Positions 3,427 through 10,448 of a stretch of 64,000 nucleotides of DNA are shown in pieces. The notes below the pieces were generated by a model. The model searched no databases. It saw nothing but the letters and a program-made list of their open reading frames with translations, and was not told the origin of the DNA. The stretch covers positions 264,712-328,711 of the forward strand of contig CAWJCO010000003.1 of NCBI GenBank assembly GCA_963841385.1. The letters run 5' to 3'. The number at the start of each line of letters is the position of its first letter. Within the stretch, counting starts at the first letter, position 1. The position numbers and the translations under genes were made by a program. Source of the DNA: an uncultured Chloroflexia bacterium. GTDB taxonomy: Bacteria; Chloroflexota; Dormibacteria; Aeolococcales; Aeolococcaceae.

Positions 3427-5784
3427 GTGAAGGTCCGCCTCGCCGTGCGCGCCAGGCTCGCCCGTGGCCGCGGCGGCGAGCCGGACCACTGGGCGATCCG
3501 CCGCGGGCCTCTCTGGGCCGCCCTGGCTCTCGCGGCGGCGGTGGCGGCGGCCTCGGCCGGAGTCGGCCTCCTGCTCCATCCCTGGCGCTCGGCGACCGGC
3601 GGGTCTGCCTCACCCGACGCCACCATGCCCGTGTCCTCCTCGCCGGGCATGCCGTCGCCGCGGGAGGGAGCGGCGATGGCGTACGACCCGGCCACCCGGA
3701 CGGTGGTCCTCTTCGGAGGCGACGATGGCGAGGACGCTCTCGGCGATACCTGGAGCTGGGGGGGCTCCGGATGGGCGCGCCTTGATCCGGCAGTGTCACC
3801 ACCGCCGCGCACCGGCGCGCTGATGGCGTATGACCCGGCCACCCGGCGCCTGGTGCTCACCGGCGGCCGCGCAATGAGCGGCGGTGGCGCGGCCGGCTCC
3901 GTTGACGTCGACACCTGGACGTGGGACGGCTTGGCGTGGTCCCCGGAGCCTTCGGGGAGCCTTCCCGCCTCCGCCTCGAGCGGCATGGGGGTGGCCCTCG
4001 CCACCGACGGCGCCACCGAGCAACTGGTCCTGGTCACGGGTCTCGAGCAGGCCGGCTGCCAAGCGGAGGAGACGTGGCTCTGGTCGGGGACCTCGTGGTC
4101 GCAGCTTCACCCCACCATCTCTCCCATCGGCGCCGAGGGGGGCCTGCTCGCCGACGACCCCGTCACCGGGCACCTCGACCTCTTCAGCAGCGCTGGGGGG
4201 TGCCCGGGAGACGGAGAACAGGGCACGGTGCTCTGGTCGTGGGATGGGCGGACCTGGAAGGCGGACGGAAGCTCCGCGGGGGCGGCCGGGCTGAACGTCC
4301 CCAAGATGATCGTCTCGGGTCAGCTGGTGGCATCCGCCATCGGTCCGCTGCTCGTCGTCTACGGCGGCACCTACGCCTGGCACGGTGACGCCGGGTGGGC
4401 GCAGCTGACCGGCGCGCCCGGAGGGCTGGGAGAGATGGCGGAGCCGCCCGCCACCGACCAGCGCGATGGTGAGGCCCTCGCGTTCGACTCCGCCCTCCAC
4501 GAGGCCGTGCTCTTCGGGGGCGAATGCGCCAGCTGCGATCCCGACGGCGTCGACTACCTCGGGGACACCTGGACCTTCGACGGGAGCTGGGCCCTCGCCG
4601 CCGCGGGGACGGCGATCACCCCGACGCCGACATCCGCGCCCACGCCCACACCCGCCCCGGTTCCCTGCGCCCCGCCCACGCCGCCGGGCGCCCCCGTGCT
4701 GATCGGCGACCTGAGCATGCTCAGCCCGACCACCGGGTGGGCCGAGGAGGGGGGTACCAGCACGATCCTGCGCACCACCTCCGGGGCGCAGCGGTGGGCG
4801 GTGGCGTCGCCGCCGCTCTCGGGCGACCAGCAGGTGCTGGCCGCGTCGTTCCTCGACTCCACCGCCGCGCAGGCGATCACCGGCACGCTGTGGAACTGCG
4901 ACGACCAGGGGCCCCCATCGGCCACCCTGGTCGCCTGGGGGACCGCGGACGGCGGGGCCACCTGGTCGAGTGAGGGGGCGTTCTCGGTGGCGTCTTTCGA
5001 CGGTGGCACCCTGGACTTCGTCAACGCTGAGGACGGCTGGCTCTCGGTCAGTGAAGGGGGGTGGGCCGGCGGGTCGGCGATGGCGCTGTACCGCACGGTC
5101 GACGCGGGCGCGTCGTGGGAGAAGGTGGCGAGCAGCGACGTCGACGGCGGCGCCTCGCCGGGCGCGGCAGGGGTCATCCCGGTCGCGGGCTACGTGGGGA
5201 CAGCGTCGTTCATCAACCCGAGCACCGGGTGGATCACGGAAACCAGCGGCGGCGGCGACGGTGCACTCTTCTACGTCAGCCACAACGGCGGGGTCACCTG
5301 GGCCGCGCAGACCCTGAGGGCTGCGGCGGGGCTCCTCCAACCCTCGACGACTGCTCCGCGATTCTGGTCCAGCCAGGGCGGCTGGGTCCTCGTCGATGCC
5401 TCGGACCAGGCGTCGTTGGTGTACCTGACCACCGACGGAGGTCAGGAGTGGAGCCTGGTGGCGCTGCCGGGTGGCGGTCAGCTGCCGGAGGCCGTCGACT
5501 TCATCGACGCGGCCGACGGGTGGCTGCTCGCCTTCACCGAGACGAGCACCGGCGCGGAGACGAGCCAGACCCTTTGGGAGACCAAGGACGGGGGCACCTC
5601 GTGGACCGCGATCTCCTCCGACACCGCACTCGCCACCCCCGACTTCGTCAACGCCGGCGACGGCTGGGCCACCACGACCGCGGGGAGCGGGGCCACGGTG
5701 CCCGCCCTGCTTCAGACCACCGACGGCGGCCGGACCTGGACGGCCGTGAACCTCGAGATCGGCGGCTCCCCGGCGTCATCCTGA
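3427..5784 (+). CDS. Membrane-anchored surface protein: N-terminal Kelch-like repeats plus C-terminal BNR/Asp-box (Ycf48/sortilin-like) beta-propeller
   Basis: N-terminal TM anchor. Repeated YDPATRxxVLFGG...DTWxW units (Kelch-like), a PT-rich linker, then six Asp-box-like motifs (DGGATWSS, DAGASWEK, NGGVTWAA, DGGQEWSL, DGGTSWTA, DGGRTWTA). Confidence 0.7.
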   Translation: MKVRLAVRARLARGRGGEPDHWAIRRGPLWAALALAAAVAAASAGVGLLLHPWRSATGGSASPDATMPVSSSPGMPSPREGAAMAYDPATRTVVLFGGDDGEDALGDTWSWGGSGWARLDPAVSPPPRTGALMAYDPATRRLVLTGGRAMSGGGAAGSVDVDTWTWDGLAWSPEPSGSLPASASSGMGVALATDGATEQLVLVTGLEQAGCQAEETWLWSGTSWSQLHPTISPIGAEGGLLADDPVTGHLDLFSSAGGCPGDGEQGTVLWSWDGRTWKADGSSAGAAGLNVPKMIVSGQLVASAIGPLLVVYGGTYAWHGDAGWAQLTGAPGGLGEMAEPPATDQRDGEALAFDSALHEAVLFGGECASCDPDGVDYLGDTWTFDGSWALAAAGTAITPTPTSAPTPTPAPVPCAPPTPPGAPVLIGDLSMLSPTTGWAEEGGTSTILRTTSGAQRWAVASPPLSGDQQVLAASFLDSTAAQAITGTLWNCDDQGPPSATLVAWGTADGGATWSSEGAFSVASFDGGTLDFVNAEDGWLSVSEGGWAGGSAMALYRTVDAGASWEKVASSDVDGGASPGAAGVIPVAGYVGTASFINPSTGWITETSGGGDGALFYVSHNGGVTWAAQTLRAAAGLLQPSTTAPRFWSSQGGWVLVDASDQASLVYLTTDGGQEWSLVALPGGGQLPEAVDFIDAADGWLLAFTETSTGAETSQTLWETKDGGTSWTAISSDTALATPDFVNAGDGWATTTAGSGATVPALLQTTDGGRTWTAVNLEIGGSPASS

Positions 5785-6900
5785 CTGCGACCACTCCTCC
5801 GGGTCGGGCTCCAGCGCCTCCAGGCGCAGCTCGCGGGGCGGATGGGTGGCGGCGATGACCCGGTCCCATCCCGACCGGCCCGGCTCCAGCTCGCCGAGCA
5901 GGCTCAGCGCGCGATGCAGGGCCTCGCCGCGTCCGGTCGCGCGCACCGCGGCGTCCGCCGCGTACTCCTGGCGGCGCGAACCCAGGGCGACGACCGGCTC
6001 GATGACCAGCCGGACCAGCAGCCACGCCGGCCAGAGCGCGATCCACCCGGCCAGGGCGATGAGCGCATTCCCCTGCTGCGCCATCCAGCAGCCGGCGTCA
6101 TAGAGGATGACCAGGGGCAGCCCGCAGCAGCGGACCCAGCGCAACCCCACGCCGTCGCCTGCCGCCCAGTGGTGGAGCGCGTGGCAGAGCACCGCCTCGA
6201 GCGTCGCGTCGCCGGCGGGGCCCGCGCCCAGCTCGTCGAGCAGGCTGCGTCCGACCACCAGGTGGCGGCTGTGGACGCGCACCCGGAGGTCGTCGCCGCC
6301 GGCCATCAGCAGCAGCGGCAGCGAGCTCAGTCCCAGGTCGGCGGCGGCCGCCTGGAGCAGGGGCGTGACCCGAGCGGCCTCGCGCCGGCTCAATCGCCGG
6401 CAACCGCTCCAGCGAAGCAGCCGCGGCTCCAACGCCACGCTGGCCGCGAGCAGGGCCATGGAGACCGCCAGCCCTCCGGCCAGGGCACCGAGGAATGCCA
6501 GCGGCTCCTCGCCGACCAGGGCCGCCACCCCGGAGACGAGGCCGCCAGCCGCCGCGCGGAGGGCGCCGCCCGCGACCGTGAGGGCGCCGCTCCCGGGGCC
6601 GGTGGAGCTGCCGGCCCCGGCCAGCGCCGCTCCGATGGCGGAGCCCAGCGCCGAGAGGACGGCCCCGGCGATGGCGTCGGCCACCACCAGCCACACCGCC
6701 AGCCACACCCCGGACCAGGCACAGACCAGGGCGACCAGGCCCGGCGCCCAGCGCCGGCGCACCGCGACGGCGATCCAGGCGACGGCGCCGGCCTGACCGG
6801 CTGGACGGCCGGACGGGTGCGGGGTCTCCGGGGCGGGCCGGGGAGGGGCGGCCGGCGAGGTGGCCATCGAAGGGGGGGCAGGGGGCAGCCGGGTGGTCAC
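5776..6900 (-). CDS. Polytopic membrane protein of the M48 (HtpX/Ste24-like) peptidase family with degenerate active site (HALHH instead of HExxH)
   Basis: Several N-terminal TM helices. M48-like core reads LEAVLCHALHHWAAGD ... EYAADAAV ... THPPRELRLEAL, but the catalytic Glu codon is GCG (Ala). The GTG start overlaps the stop of the upstream ATPase (GTGA, 6897-6900). Confidence 0.6.
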   Translation of the reverse strand: MTTRLPPAPPSMATSPAAPPRPAPETPHPSGRPAGQAGAVAWIAVAVRRRWAPGLVALVCAWSGVWLAVWLVVADAIAGAVLSALGSAIGAALAGAGSSTGPGSGALTVAGGALRAAAGGLVSGVAALVGEEPLAFLGALAGGLAVSMALLAASVALEPRLLRWSGCRRLSRREAARVTPLLQAAAADLGLSSLPLLLMAGGDDLRVRVHSRHLVVGRSLLDELGAGPAGDATLEAVLCHALHHWAAGDGVGLRWVRCCGLPLVILYDAGCWMAQQGNALIALAGWIALWPAWLLVRLVIEPVVALGSRRQEYAADAAVRATGRGEALHRALSLLGELEPGRSGWDRVIAATHPPRELRLEALEPDPEEWSQSG

Positions 6901-8303
6901 GGCTCACCCGCCGACTCAGGCCACGGCTCACCCGGCAGCTCAGGCCGCAGCACCCGGATGGTCGCCACCCGCCGGCCGCCGGCGACCCCGAGCACCACCG
7001 CCTCCCCGGTCGCGAGCTGCTTCATCACGTTGGGGTCCACGGCGTAGCGGTCCACCGCGCGCACCGAGCGGCGGACCGGCTCGCTGGCGTCGCTCAGGGT
7101 GCGGGTCACCTGCACGCCCCGCTCCGTGCCGATGACCCGGGCCACCGCCTCGGCGTCGTCGTGGCCGACCCGGTGGGCGATCAGCAGGCCGGCCCCGAGC
7201 AGCGCGCCGCGCAGCGCGTGGGCGGTGCGCGGGTCGGGGAGCTGCTGGGTGCTCACCACCGCACCCAGCCGGGCTTCGCGCGCCTGATGGAGCAGGTCGT
7301 TGATCTGCTCGGGGTCGTCCAGGGCGGCGAACTCGTCCAGGACCAGCATCGCCGGAGCCGCGTCCGGCTGCTGCAGGCGGAGGAAGGCCGCCTGCTTCAG
7401 GTCCTGGATCAATACCCGGGCCATCAGGGCGGTGTCCTGGCTGACCGCCAGCGCCGGCAGGCTGATGTAGGTGACGCCCGGGGAGGCCAGGGCGGTGGGC
7501 AGGTCGAGCTGCGGGCCGTCACTGTCGAAGATGCCGCCGTACTCGCCGTGGAGGAGAGCGCCGAGGCGTGCCCGCATCCCCTCGAACGCGTCGGCGGAGA
7601 CGCCGCCGCGACGGGAGAGCTCAGCCAGGTCGTCGGCCAGTTCCGGGGTGAGGTCGCGGGCCCGGTGGGCCAGACCGGGCATGCGGGTGCGGTCCAGCTC
7701 CCGGCGGAGCCGCCGGATGGTCACCGGCTCGTCCAGGGCCCGGAGGATCCCGACCAGGATCGAGATCGTCTCCAGGGCGATCACCCGGTACACCTGCCCG
7801 GCCGCCCCGTGGGTGAAGGCCGAGACCAGCTTGTCGGCGATCTGGGCCCGGCTGCCCACCGCGCAGGGGTTGTATCCCAATGTCCCCGGGGCACCGGGCA
7901 CCACCTCGTGGTGGTCGAGGCCACGGACGGCCGCCAGCCGCCGGGCCGCGGTCCGCAGGCCCGCCCCCTTGGCGTCGATCACGACCAGGCCGACCCCGGC
8001 GGCGACCGCGCCCTCGGCGAGCCGCTCCGCGGTGGTCGTCTTCCCGGACCCGGTCAGACCGAGGAGGGTCACGTGCTGGGCGATCCCCTCGGGGACCGCG
8101 ATGTCGAACGGCCTCCGGCTGACGGTGTCCATCCCGAGGCGGATGAAGCCGGAAGGGTGGACGGGATGGTCCGCTGCCGGCGGGGGGGAGGCAGCCGGAG
8201 ACAGCGGCGTGCGGCCGAGGGGTGGCATCTCGGCGGCGGATCGTCTCATGGACGCCGATCGTTCCGGGAGAGTGGCGATCGCATCATGGGCGGCATCACG
8301 CAC
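6897..8303 (-). CDS. TraD/VirD4/FtsK-HerA-like P-loop ATPase (coupling-protein-like), no TM segments seen
   Basis: Walker A LLGLTGSGKTTTAE followed by VVIDAKG. Walker B MLVLDEFAALDD, and a C-terminal LIAHRVGHDDAEAV block typical of TraG/TraD C-terminal domains. Start is uncertain (GTG 8303 or ATG 8249). Confidence 0.6.
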   Translation of the reverse strand: MRDAAHDAIATLPERSASMRRSAAEMPPLGRTPLSPAASPPPAADHPVHPSGFIRLGMDTVSRRPFDIAVPEGIAQHVTLLGLTGSGKTTTAERLAEGAVAAGVGLVVIDAKGAGLRTAARRLAAVRGLDHHEVVPGAPGTLGYNPCAVGSRAQIADKLVSAFTHGAAGQVYRVIALETISILVGILRALDEPVTIRRLRRELDRTRMPGLAHRARDLTPELADDLAELSRRGGVSADAFEGMRARLGALLHGEYGGIFDSDGPQLDLPTALASPGVTYISLPALAVSQDTALMARVLIQDLKQAAFLRLQQPDAAPAMLVLDEFAALDDPEQINDLLHQAREARLGAVVSTQQLPDPRTAHALRGALLGAGLLIAHRVGHDDAEAVARVIGTERGVQVTRTLSDASEPVRRSVRAVDRYAVDPNVMKQLATGEAVVLGVAGGRRVATIRVLRPELPGEPWPESAGEP

Positions 8304-8340
8304 TCGGATTGGGCGATTGGTGCGATGGGGCAGGCGCGCG

Positions 8341-9036
8341 TCAGAAACCGCGACGGCTGCGCCAGGCGCGGGGCTCGATCAGATGCTCCAGGCCCCTCGC
8401 GGCGACCAGCGCGCTCAGCCGCGAGACCGCCACCTGGCTGGGCAGGTACCACCAGACGGTGTCGACGTCGCGGTCGACCGCGTAGGCGCCGGCCAGGAGG
8501 TCCAGGCGCGCCGATCGCTTCGGGGTCAGGTCCAGCTCCACGGCGACCCGCTCGCCGCCGTCCAGCCGGAGCAGCCCGTCGGGGACCCGACGCTGCCGCT
8601 CCCAGGCGCCACCGGTCCGGGCGGCGCGCATCCGGTCCCGGCGCAGCTCGCGCTCGGTGGTCCAGGCGCTGCCGGGGTGGGTGACCAGCAATTCTTCCGA
8701 GAGATCGACCAGGGCCAAGTTGTGGTGGACACGGGCCAGGTCGAGCGACGCCGGAGCCAGGTCGCAGCCGGCCAGGCGGGCCCCGCGGGGGGTGGCGCGC
8801 ACCACCGCCGGCAGCGCGGCCAGCACGCGGTCGCGGACCAGCAGCCCGGCCACCTCCAGGGCCCGCAGGCGGCGCTGCGCGGGAACCGGCCCCGTGAGGA
8901 AGCGGTTGCTGAGCTGATCGGCGAGGACCATGCCGTGGCGCACCGCGAAGCGCAGCACGTCCAGGTCGCGGGGGGCGAGCCGGAGACCCCGAGGGGGAGG
9001 GGCGGGCGCGGTGCGGTCCATGCCGCCCGCGATCAT
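8341..9036 (-). CDS. Replication-relaxation family-like protein (wHTH plus PD-(D/E)xK-like C-terminal region)
   Basis: N-terminal wHTH PRDLDVLRFAVRHGMVLADQL...RRLRALEVAGLL. C-terminal HHNLALVD...PDGLLRL...VAVELDLTPK resembles the Replic_Relax (PF13814) signature. ATG 9036 overlaps the comF stop (ATGA, 9033-9036). Confidence 0.55.
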   Translation of the reverse strand: MIAGGMDRTAPAPPPRGLRLAPRDLDVLRFAVRHGMVLADQLSNRFLTGPVPAQRRLRALEVAGLLVRDRVLAALPAVVRATPRGARLAGCDLAPASLDLARVHHNLALVDLSEELLVTHPGSAWTTERELRRDRMRAARTGGAWERQRRVPDGLLRLDGGERVAVELDLTPKRSARLDLLAGAYAVDRDVDTVWWYLPSQVAVSRLSALVAARGLEHLIEPRAWRSRRGF

Positions 9037-9704
9037 GACCGCTGGGGTCGGGGTGCGGCGGGGCTCTCCGCCTGTTCGCGCCACGGCTGCCGGCAGAGCG
9101 CGAGCCCGCAGACCTCACGCGCTCCGCCCTGGAGGCGCAGCGCGCGGGCCACCTCGTCGAGGGTGCGGCCGTCGGTGAAGACGTCGTCCACCACCAGCAG
9201 GCGCTTGCCGGCGGTCCGCCGCGGGTCGGGGACGCGAAGGGCGGGACGGAGCCGTTGGGTGGCGAGGCGCCGCCGCTCGGCATGGCCGCGCCCGGCGAGG
9301 CGCGGCGTCGGCCCGGTCTTGACGATGGCGGGGACGCCCCCGAGGTCGAAAGGTGGCCCGTCCCCGGGCGCCGTCCGGAGGGCCGCCTCGGTGAGCATCA
9401 ACCGCACGTGGTCGAAGTCGCGGCCTCCCGGCCCGACGAAGGTGGGGCTGGCGACCACCAGGTCGAAGCCGCCGAGCAGCCGCCGCCGCTGGGCCAGGTA
9501 CCCGGCCAGCATGGTGCCGAAGACGCGGGCCCGGCTCCGATCTCCCTCGTACTTGTAGGCGTCGAGGGCGCGCTCCAGGAGGCCGCTCCGCTCGGCGACG
9601 GCGACGTTCCAGCGGAACCAGCGCGAGGCGCTGGCGCAGAGCGGGTTGCGGCAGCCGGTCGCCTCCGCCGCGAGCGGCCGCCCGCAGACGCCGCACCCGC
9701 TCAC
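9033..9704 (-). CDS. comF: ComF family protein (ComFC-like phosphoribosyltransferase-fold protein)
   Basis: N-terminal zinc-finger cysteines CGVCGRPL...CRNPLC and the PRPP-binding loop LLVVDDVFTDGRTL. The GTG start at 9704 overlaps the dprA stop (GTGA, 9701-9704). The listed 619-aa ORF is real only in its C-terminal 223 aa. Confidence 0.8.
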   Translation of the reverse strand: MSGCGVCGRPLAAEATGCRNPLCASASRWFRWNVAVAERSGLLERALDAYKYEGDRSRARVFGTMLAGYLAQRRRLLGGFDLVVASPTFVGPGGRDFDHVRLMLTEAALRTAPGDGPPFDLGGVPAIVKTGPTPRLAGRGHAERRRLATQRLRPALRVPDPRRTAGKRLLVVDDVFTDGRTLDEVARALRLQGGAREVCGLALCRQPWREQAESPAAPRPQRS

Positions 9705-10399
9705 GAACCCGCGCTCACCGCGAGCGCGAGCTGGACGGGGGCGGTGGGCGGACCTCCGGCCAGCTGCGCCAGCAGCGCCTCCAGGCCGGCATCGGGGGCG
9801 AGCCGGCGCCCTCCCGGCCGGGCGAGCAGAGCTCCCGCCCAGGGCTCCGCGGCCGCCAGGTCGGAGAGGAAGAGGTGCCTGCCGAGGTCGAGAGCGCAGC
9901 GTGCCGTGATGCGGGCCCCCGAGGTGGGCCCCGCCTCGACCACCACGGTCGCGGCGGCGAGGGCGGCGATGAGGGCGTTGCGCCGGCGGAGTGCCGCCGG
10001 CGACACCGGGGCCTCGGGGGGGAGCTGCGACACGACGGCGCCGTGAGCCGCGATCCGGTCGGCGAGCCCGGCGTTCTCGGGCGGGTAGATCTGCCCGATG
10101 CCGCAGCCGAGGACCGCGATGCTGCGCCCTCCGGCGTCGAGGCACGCCTCGTGGGCGGCGGTGTCGATGCCGCGGGCCAGCCCGGACACCACCGTCACCC
10201 CGGCACCGGCAAGCTCCCGGGCCAGGCTCCGGGCACGGGCGAACCCCGCCGGGCTCGGGGACCGCGTTCCCACCACGGCGACGCAGCGCTCGTCGTCCGG
10301 ACCGGCGGTCCCGCGCCACCAGAGCCGGGGCGCATGGCCCGCCAGGCGCAGCCCGGCCGGGTAGCTGGCGTCGAGCGGGCCCACCTGAAGCAAACGCAT
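9701..10399 (-). CDS. dprA: DNA-processing protein DprA/Smf, minimal Rossmann-fold-only form (about 232 aa)
   Basis: VAVVGTRSPS...VVSGLARGIDTAAHEACL...AVLGCGIGQIYPPEN...VVSQLPP...RNALIAALA is the canonical DprA core. Start taken at ATG 10399 (MRLLQVGPL). Confidence 0.85.
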   Translation of the reverse strand: MRLLQVGPLDASYPAGLRLAGHAPRLWWRGTAGPDDERCVAVVGTRSPSPAGFARARSLARELAGAGVTVVSGLARGIDTAAHEACLDAGGRSIAVLGCGIGQIYPPENAGLADRIAAHGAVVSQLPPEAPVSPAALRRRNALIAALAAATVVVEAGPTSGARITARCALDLGRHLFLSDLAAAEPWAGALLARPGGRRLAPDAGLEALLAQLAGGPPTAPVQLALAVSAGS

Positions 10400-10448
10400 G
10401 TTCGCAAGTGTAACCGGGGGCAGGGCGCCGCTGCCGTAGACTCGGCGC

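Follow-up and report, generated by a model that had tools for sequence, protein, structure and literature searches.

The window analysed here, a stretch of 64,000 nt from contig CAWJCO010000003.1 of an uncultured Chloroflexia bacterium (assembly GCA_963841385.1), belongs to a soil bacterium of the uncultured phylum Dormibacterota and carries on its minus strand an operon of five consecutive genes, which we call A to E (Table 1). They encode, in this order, a truncated DprA-like protein, a phosphoribosyltransferase (PRTase) of the ComF family, a Replic_Relax protein, a coupling-protein ATPase, and an M48-like membrane protein. The A/B, B/C, and D/E junctions are start/stop overlaps that can be read directly (GTGA at 9701-9704, ATGA at 9033-9036, and GTGA at 6897-6900), and C and D are separated by a gap of 37 nt (8304-8340). 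All five frames are supported by the GC of the third codon position, which lies at 0.90-0.96 in the codon-position GC plot, and all five genes are under purifying selection, with Ka/Ks of 0.16-0.39 against relatives at Ks 0.2-1.0. The first-pass annotation of this DNA had described the same five genes, overlaps, and gap, and these are indeed coding and selectively maintained. Gene D has an alternative ATG at 8249, which gives a protein of 450 aa, the form found in the database.

Table 1. Features of the five-gene locus and its immediate surroundings (positions in the window).
Feature	Position	Strand	Size or remark
Gene A	9701-10399	-	232 aa
Gene B	9033-9704	-	223 aa
Gene C	8341-9036	-	231 aa
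Gene D	6897-8303	-	468 aa
Gene E	5776-6900	-	374 aa
LexA-box-like palindrome GAACATGCGTTT	10392..10403	-	overlaps the A start codon
-10-like hexamer TACACT	10407..10412	-	7 nt upstream of the A ATG, read directly
Kelch/BNR gene	3427-5784	+	convergent with E, 9-nt overlap
Glyoxalase_6 gene	starts 10449		divergent from A, 49 nt away

Comparison loci, designated by L-numbers, were collected by protein-based look-ups and by a metagenome scan with a profile of C (80 loci), and both sets were analysed by tblastn. The order A-E and the identical overlaps recur in about ten independent lineages at 47-93% protein identity, and the linkage of dprA and comF to the three downstream genes, which the earlier annotation had left to gene-neighbourhood comparison, is thus conserved in a clade. 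Named homologues of the genes come from Candidatus Dormibacterota/Dormibacteria metagenome-assembled genomes. The window falls within a single monophyletic chromosomal clade with a long stem, whose members share the surroundings of the operon: an ABC transporter (ABC2), DUF1697, LMWPc, and glyoxalases on one side, and an anti-sigma/ECF sigma pair, Lipoprotein_15, PALP, and a luciferase-like gene on the other. Neither an integrase, nor a type IV secretion system (T4SS) gene, a tRNA, or att-like repeats flank the operon within the window, which bears out the earlier remark that integrase, T4SS genes, and att repeats are absent, and synteny confirms the chromosomal, non-island setting. The GC content, previously judged by eye to be like that of the host, is roughly so: the operon has 76.6% against 72.2% for the whole window, which is slightly higher and not lower. 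Searches of plasmid (PLSDB) and phage collections returned no close relatives of C, D, or E, and a contig profile search with the D ATPase (Walker-A pattern) had two distant loci among the matches listed.

The family assignments made at first sight hold for all five proteins, with caveats. A consists of a Rossmann/SLOG domain only, without the N-terminal SAM domain and the C-terminal domain. It matches PF02481 over residues 9-178 (7.5e-53) and the PADLOC models ShosA (3e-56) and PsyrA (1.3e-23), shows a weak match to SLOG cluster-4 (9e-5), and stays under the cut-off of the curated dprA model TIGR00732 (172 bits, with a cut-off of 191). DprA chains are its matches in PDB at 1e-22, with ShosA equally good, and it aligns solely with the Rossmann part of these 288-382-aa DprA/ShosA chains. 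B has a single zinc ribbon of four cysteines and a PRTase domain with an intact phosphoribosyl pyrophosphate (PRPP) loop (VVDDVFTDGRT); in the alignment of its relatives C4, C7, C18, C23, K51, and the loop VDDVxTxGxT are invariant. Its profile matches are 6.7e-9 to comF TIGR00201 (35.9 bits, far under the cut-off of 233.55), 5.5e-6 to PF00156, 1.4e-6 to PADLOC ShosT over just 62 of 237 profile positions, and 2.4e-4 to PADLOC PsyrT. The AlphaFold2 model of B (pLDDT 91) has H. pylori ComF as its top match in PDB (7p0h; E 3e-4, TM-score 0.47), with ShosT ranking lower, and the sequence itself retrieves generic PRTases only from PDB. Canonical ComF proteins are 30-35% identical to B, and no competence genes (comFA, comEC) were found in the flanks of the operon.

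C is assigned to Replic_Relax (the MOBC superfamily) through its homologues; it has a winged helix at the N-terminus and a putative domain of the PD-(D/E)xK type. C itself has no Pfam match at E<=0.1, and its match to the NCBIfam model of MobC replication-relaxation proteins (5e-4) is far under the cut-off, while PF13814 is matched by 13 of 24 homologues, with identities to C down to 58-77%, at best with 5e-8. Residues H105, E128, P152-D153, E167-x-D169, and K173 are invariant in the 24 C sequences, and E128, D153, E167, D169, and K173 are kept in about 90 loci. In the AlphaFold2 model (pLDDT 88), the N-terminal part resembles winged helix-turn-helix folds of the MarR type (Foldseek), with which profile matches in PDB agree. 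Replic_Relax is a family of the PD-(D/E)XK group (PMC3424549), and PF13814 corresponds to the MOBC relaxase superfamily, whose members typically travel with a VirD4 coupling protein as a known mobilisation pair (PMC5357655). The statement in the first-pass annotation that the locus has no relaxase of a classical MOB family was therefore wrong.

D is a coupling-protein ATPase of the VirD4/TrwB/DotL type, i.e., of the hexameric ATPases that translocate DNA, and Walker A (GSGKTT) and Walker B (LDEF) are both conserved in it. Its Pfam matches are TrwB_AAD_bind and DUF87, and it also matches SXT_TraD (4.5e-10). The profile of its family matches TrwB at 5e-8 and, over the greater part of the domain, DotL/IcmO at 2.6e-13. 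Neither D nor its close relatives have a hydrophobic segment, and the N-terminal transmembrane domain is missing, a feature that had been overlooked together with the box at the start of A described below. No T4SS gene (VirB4 etc.) was found in the flanks within the window, nor within 10 kb in any Pfam-annotated related locus, though one could lie elsewhere in the genome. E is a polytopic membrane protein with about four hydrophobic segments that matches PF01435 above its cut-off (2.1e-8). Its zinc motif reads HALHH instead of HExxH, the third-ligand motif EYAAD being retained, and the distal E-[YF]-x-x-D is present in all relatives of E that were compared. Two candidate relations were considered and rejected. 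The MADS defence system is represented by its mad8 model only, which matches D (PADLOC, 5e-16), the other mad genes being absent; because this model was built from alignments of HHpred/PDB homologues, the match is generic for coupling-protein/HerA ATPases. The database protein P0056 (773 aa) has the appearance of an ATPase-M48 fusion, but its Arg-rich linker is an out-of-frame read-through, i.e., a frameshift or assembly artefact.

The origin of C-D-E can be traced through a distant clade of relatives, in which C is 37-47% and D about 40-46% identical to the proteins of the window and in which the three genes are always found together. There they are embedded in integrative elements that encode a single-stranded DNA (ssDNA)-binding protein (SSB), ArdA, a DnaG-type primase, and tyrosine or serine recombinases, and that carry as cargo pAgo, Shedu, type I restriction-modification, AbiJ, and toxin-antitoxin pairs. 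The 47 element-borne loci contain neither A nor B, and within 10 kb they showed no T4SS gene. SSB, ArdA, primase, and integrase genes accompany the module in four contexts reached by protein look-up and in about 40 metagenome loci. The element-borne relative of D has about 580 aa and two to three N-terminal transmembrane helices, and the element-borne M48 protein has about 540 aa and an intact HExxH in 17 of 17 loci. In the chromosomal clade, all 26 of the 26 E orthologues have H[AGD]xxH and have thus lost the catalytic Glu, D has lost its transmembrane domain, and B has been gained. The loss of the transmembrane domain of D and of the HExxH of E, together with the position of the locus in housekeeping synteny, leads us to regard C-D-E as a domesticated transfer module. 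It makes a clean case of the domestication of conjugation genes, in which a membrane domain and a catalytic Glu were lost and purifying selection, including that on the nuclease, persists. The same two losses make it most plausible that E is a non-proteolytic membrane anchor or scaffold for D. It had been asked earlier whether relatives of the locus sit in standard integrative and conjugative elements: the ancestry of C-D-E does lie in integrase-bearing elements, in which no T4SS was seen, and the locus of the window is itself not in one.

These elements (L003, L014, L015, L016, and L065-L102; e.g., L003:7316-13355) come from soil and peat metagenomes. Their core consists of SSB, ArdA, a primase with a DnaG-type zinc ribbon, the Replic_Relax/MOBC protein, a full-length coupling protein, and a large M48 protease; its cargo includes pAgo with DpnII-MboI, Shedu, type I restriction-modification, AbiJ, and HipAB, and VirB4 was not seen within 10 kb. 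In this element family the relaxase and the coupling protein are always accompanied by an M48-type membrane protease, and we found no description of this third component.

At the chromosomal site, the operon comes in several versions. The complete A-B-C-D-E is present in about ten lineages, including that of the window (A being 47-83% identical), and B-C-D-E in about ten, including the basal L001. Single lineages have C-D-E with a 53-aa remnant of B (L019/L020), D-E (L010), A-C only (L055), or an internal D-E deletion (L049). The remnant of B has a Ka/Ks of 0.72. From the base of the chromosomal clade onwards, the divergence of the intact B has paralleled that of C-D-E, as seen in L001 (65-67%) and L007 (70-80%).

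Some of these sites deserve a closer description. At L055 (L055:9019-10657), a 270-aa DprA gene with the box is followed by a Replic_Relax gene, B, D, and E being absent, and an Nramp transporter gene lies next to it on the opposite strand. At L049 (L049:10742-11507), an in-frame-looking deletion joins the N-terminal third of D (residues ~49-181) to the C-terminal third of E (residues ~247-368); the module of this one lineage is a decayed copy, with A, B, and C retained. An element led by a tyrosine integrase is inserted in D in two lineages, L032 and L025/L026, at differing codons (~151 and ~304); its position is given by the comparison of L032:11190-20669 with the intact L039, and of L025 and L026 with position 11644 of L023. 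The insert of L032 also encodes a terminase large subunit, looks like a prophage, and has its own GAAC-N4-GTTT box near a -10-like TACAAT. In L020 (L020:6750-8178), on a contig otherwise nearly identical to L019, tblastn recovers D in two pieces whose frames differ (residues 6-289 and 288-468); either the long-read assembly contains a frameshift error here or D has recently become a pseudogene.

The other half of the operon has a different history. A-B is a portable cassette of a DprA gene followed by a ComF-like PRTase gene, of the Shosta/RqlHI kind, and is not new as a pair. The closest pair that is not orthologous is at L021, where B is 48% and A 52% identical and where the order DprA-PRTase and the overlap are matched. 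This cluster (L021:7030-13229) comprises a LexA-type box, a 314-aa DprA, the PRTase, a GajB-like UvrD helicase, proteins of 280 aa and 124 aa, and a PDDEXK_1 nuclease, and adjoins Xre-RES and SNF2 helicase genes. It has the look of a sister system, with the cassette joined to another motor and another nuclease: like A-E, it combines the cassette and the operator palindrome with a downstream DNA motor and PD-(D/E)xK nuclease, but the motor is an SF1 helicase of the UvrD type, the nuclease is of the AddB/RecB type, there is no membrane protein, and the surroundings resemble a defence/toxin-antitoxin island. Further afield, on a linear plasmid of Streptomyces sp. NBC_01304 (L103:5541-7261), a gene annotated as DprA shares 4 nt with a ComF-family gene, next to a DNA ligase gene and dnaE, and on a plasmid of M. 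intracellulare (L104:5586-7234) a DprA gene is overlapped by 4 nt by a hypothetical gene of 253 aa, whose product has no detectable similarity to B.

Precedents for such combinations are described in the literature for ComFA/ComFC/DprA, RqlH/RqlI (= PsyrTA), and ShosTA, where a triad of PRPP-binding PRTase, DNA motor, and DprA-type RecA mediator works on ssDNA, with genotoxicity, SOS induction, and dependence on RecA and ssDNA. The triad of RqlH/RqlI, tied to SOS and genotoxic stress, is like that of our locus, but the motor here is a separate coupling-protein ATPase of the FtsK/HerA superfamily and not a fused SF2 helicase, and there is an additional nuclease and a membrane protein. The earlier annotation had regarded the association of dprA and comF with transfer genes as unusual. 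This stands for the five-gene combination, of which we found no description, and has to be qualified for its parts: the A-B pair was already known, and A and B are facultative. As far as our literature searches showed, what is new is the union of A-B and C-D-E in one conserved chromosomal operon, with a coupling-protein ATPase devoid of its transmembrane domain as the motor, an M48-like partner, and predicted control of the LexA type.

This last feature comes from the palindrome at the start of A, whose extended form GCGAACATGCGTTTGC (10390-10405) lies across the ATG. The pattern GAAC-N4-GTTY has a single match within the 64-kb window, which is this box, and 24 matches in the 1.05 Mb of fetched DNA, 14 of them at the start of A and one next to an integrase gene in a prophage-like element. 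All A-bearing loci share a 14-mer, CRAACATSCGTTYG, at this start, amidst intergenic DNA that cannot be aligned, and the box is a perfect or near-perfect CGAAC-N4-GTTCG in these loci (L017, L018, L023, L024, L026, L028, L029, L032, L039, L047, L049, and L055). At L021, the leader ahead of the DprA coding region contains a perfect palindrome, CGAACATGCGTTCG. GAAC-N4-GTTC is absent upstream of the DprA genes of the Streptomyces and M. intracellulare plasmids, which implies that the operator is peculiar to the Dormibacteria/L021 group. Its sequence is that of the LexA box consensus of Firmicutes and Actinobacteria (PMC3323433), and in Dormibacteria it is a putative LexA operator. We looked for lexA and recA in all fetched sequence as a means to validate the box and found neither. 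The distance of the hexamer TACACT to the ATG of A (Table 1) implies a leaderless transcript, and a TAnAnT hexamer occupies the equivalent position in all A-bearing loci. A generic sigma-70 scan found nothing here, and the hexamer is called a putative promoter from its conservation only; generic scans for terminators and promoters and the search for Rfam matches likewise returned none.

Operons that begin with B have another conserved leader upstream of this gene, TACCAT-N5-CTGTGTAT(T/C)CGC-N-CACCATG, seen in L007:8400-8520, L030, L031, L033, L035, L037, L041, and L044, and this leader departs from both LexA consensus sequences, the Gram-positive one and that of E. coli.

Taken together, these observations can be read as follows: A-E form a composite of domesticated and cooperating parts, an SOS-inducible, membrane-tethered DNA-processing system that is inherited vertically as a chromosomal operon. 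We give this reading about an even chance (a probability of roughly 0.5). Its structural and evolutionary part is what we observe, and we hold it with high confidence. The mechanism is offered tentatively. It would involve the following steps: 1) DNA damage or invading ssDNA would activate RecA, upon which LexA would leave the box; 2) one largely translationally coupled transcript would yield all five proteins; 3) D would be held at the membrane by E; 4) DNA bound and nicked or cut by C would be pumped or remodelled by D; 5) B would work on that ssDNA or on nucleotides; and 6) A would pass ssDNA to RecA and restrain B. The outcome would be the processing of damaged or foreign DNA, in a repair or anti-mobile-DNA role, and not the transfer of a plasmid. 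It is conceivable, if rather doubtful, that C-D-E were exapted as the motor, nuclease, and anchor of an SOS-controlled ComF-PRTase/DprA pair, and that the operon stands for an unrecognised class of membrane-tethered machines for ssDNA surveillance or repair. If so, the ComF-type PRTase would be a generic partner of interchangeable motors, be they ComFA, RecQ-like, UvrD-like, or a coupling-protein ATPase. That one cassette with a putative LexA operator is joined to two sets of motor and nuclease, here and at L021, suggests that PRTase/DprA is a general module for any motor that generates ssDNA, and points to DNA-damage control. The locus bears on the question of what the PRTase domain of ComFC, ShosT, and RqlH does on DNA.

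A number of points weigh against the cooperating system. First, A and B are dispensable at one and the same site (B is found without A in about ten lineages, neither is found in L019, and A-C stand alone in L055), so A-B and C-D-E may not be functionally interdependent. Second, B is under purifying selection where A is missing, which argues against a simple toxin-antitoxin relation. Third, defence systems are not usually inherited stably and vertically within housekeeping synteny. Fourth, the box is predicted to be a LexA operator from the Gram-positive consensus only, and the operons that begin with B lack it. Fifth, Foldseek did not confirm a nuclease fold for C: it matched only the winged helix-turn-helix and gave nothing significant for the C-terminal domain.

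Alternatively, the operon could be an accident of insertion with two unrelated neighbours, A-B being a self-contained toxin-antitoxin or abortive-infection pair of the Shosta type and C-D-E a remnant of an integrative mobilisable element that functions separately or slowly decays. This explanation, which we consider unlikely, draws on the finding of A-B without C-D-E and of C-D-E without A-B, on the match of A to ShosA (3e-56), on the clean loss of A-B in L019 (with its 53-aa remnant of B), and on the prophage-like insertion in D and the one locus with a D-E deletion. However, B has co-diverged with C-D-E and appears exactly where the module became chromosomal, and the start/stop overlaps of B and C are conserved. 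C, D, and E have kept their low Ka/Ks (0.16-0.39) over Ks of up to ~1, so they are not decaying. The likeness to the anti-phage toxin-antitoxin ShosTA is itself partial. There, too, a DprA-like gene adjoins the gene of a PRPP-binding PRTase, and there is a link to RecA, ssDNA, and DNA damage, ShosA acting via ssDNA and RecA. But the characterised ShosT has 424 aa and an N-terminal pyrophosphatase-like domain and ShosA has a SAM domain (PMC11961720), whereas B has 223 aa, is of the zinc-ribbon ComF type, and lacks the former domain, and A lacks the latter. B persists without A in many lineages, and three more genes form a translationally coupled operon with A-B.

The five genes could also still be a device for DNA transfer, in which C would nick an oriT on the chromosome or on an element, D, anchored by E, would feed a helper T4SS encoded elsewhere, and DprA and ComF would help the incoming DNA to become established in the recipient; a chromosome or an island would thereby be mobilised. 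Such a role is improbable. The position of the locus within housekeeping synteny is fixed from lineage to lineage, no integrase, att repeats, or T4SS lie within the window, D has lost the transmembrane domain with which coupling proteins engage the T4SS, E has lost its catalytic Glu, and similar genes are absent from all PLSDB plasmids. What speaks for it is the parentage of the module: MOBC and VirD4 make up the canonical mobilisation pair, C has kept its catalytic residues and D its Walker motifs, and the relatives sit in elements with the leading-region genes SSB and ArdA. SOS induction is also common among integrative elements. In the known MOBC and VirD4 modules (CloDF13 MobC/MobB, streptococcal integrative and mobilisable elements (IME) of class 8), the two genes are an adjacent and co-directional pair, as are C and D, whose C-D-E relatives reside in integrase-bearing elements. 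In contrast, the locus of the window has neither an integrase nor evidence of an oriT nor a T4SS, and its D is without a transmembrane domain. It has instead a constant M48-like third partner, for which we found no described counterpart, lies in chromosomal synteny, and is joined to a PRTase/DprA cassette.

That A and B are the ordinary transformation genes dprA and comFC, with D and E as an unusual uptake motor and channel in the manner of ComFA and ComEC, is very improbable. ComFC, a motor ATPase, and DprA do cooperate in ssDNA uptake (PMC9005727), the top structural match of B is H. pylori ComF, and E is polytopic and D a DNA translocase. The ComFA-ComFC-DprA set resembles ours further in that ComFC, like B, combines a zinc ribbon with a PRTase and stands alongside a DprA domain and an ATP-driven DNA motor. 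Yet A and B stay under the curated cut-offs (172 vs 191 bits and 36 vs 234 bits), A has neither the SAM nor the C-terminal domain, and the sister lineages are without A in about half of the cases and without both genes in one. Canonical ComF is just 30-35% identical to B, there are no competence genes nearby, neither a ComFA-type DEAD helicase nor ComEC/ComEA is present, and the control predicted here is of the LexA type and not of the competence type. Finally, a conflict system based on a nucleotide signal, the alternative raised in the first-pass annotation, in which B would make a PRPP-derived signal, the SLOG domain of A would sense it, and C-D-E would be the effectors, has precedent in comparative-genomic proposals and fits the weak SLOG cluster-4 match of A (9e-5) and the intact PRPP loop of B, but it is hardly probable at all, given that the characterised relatives ShosA and DprA bind ssDNA/RecA and not a small ligand and that A is dispensable, with B, C, D, and E retained in its absence.

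Downstream of the operon, the gene convergent with E encodes a protein of 785 aa (3427-5784, plus strand) that is predicted to be secreted, with Kelch repeats in its N-terminal part and BNR/Sortilin-Vps10/PSII_BNR repeats in its C-terminal part. In sister genomes this slot is filled otherwise, by Peptidase_M73/S26/NHL genes, a phosphoesterase, or an amine oxidase, which makes it a variable spot beside the operon.

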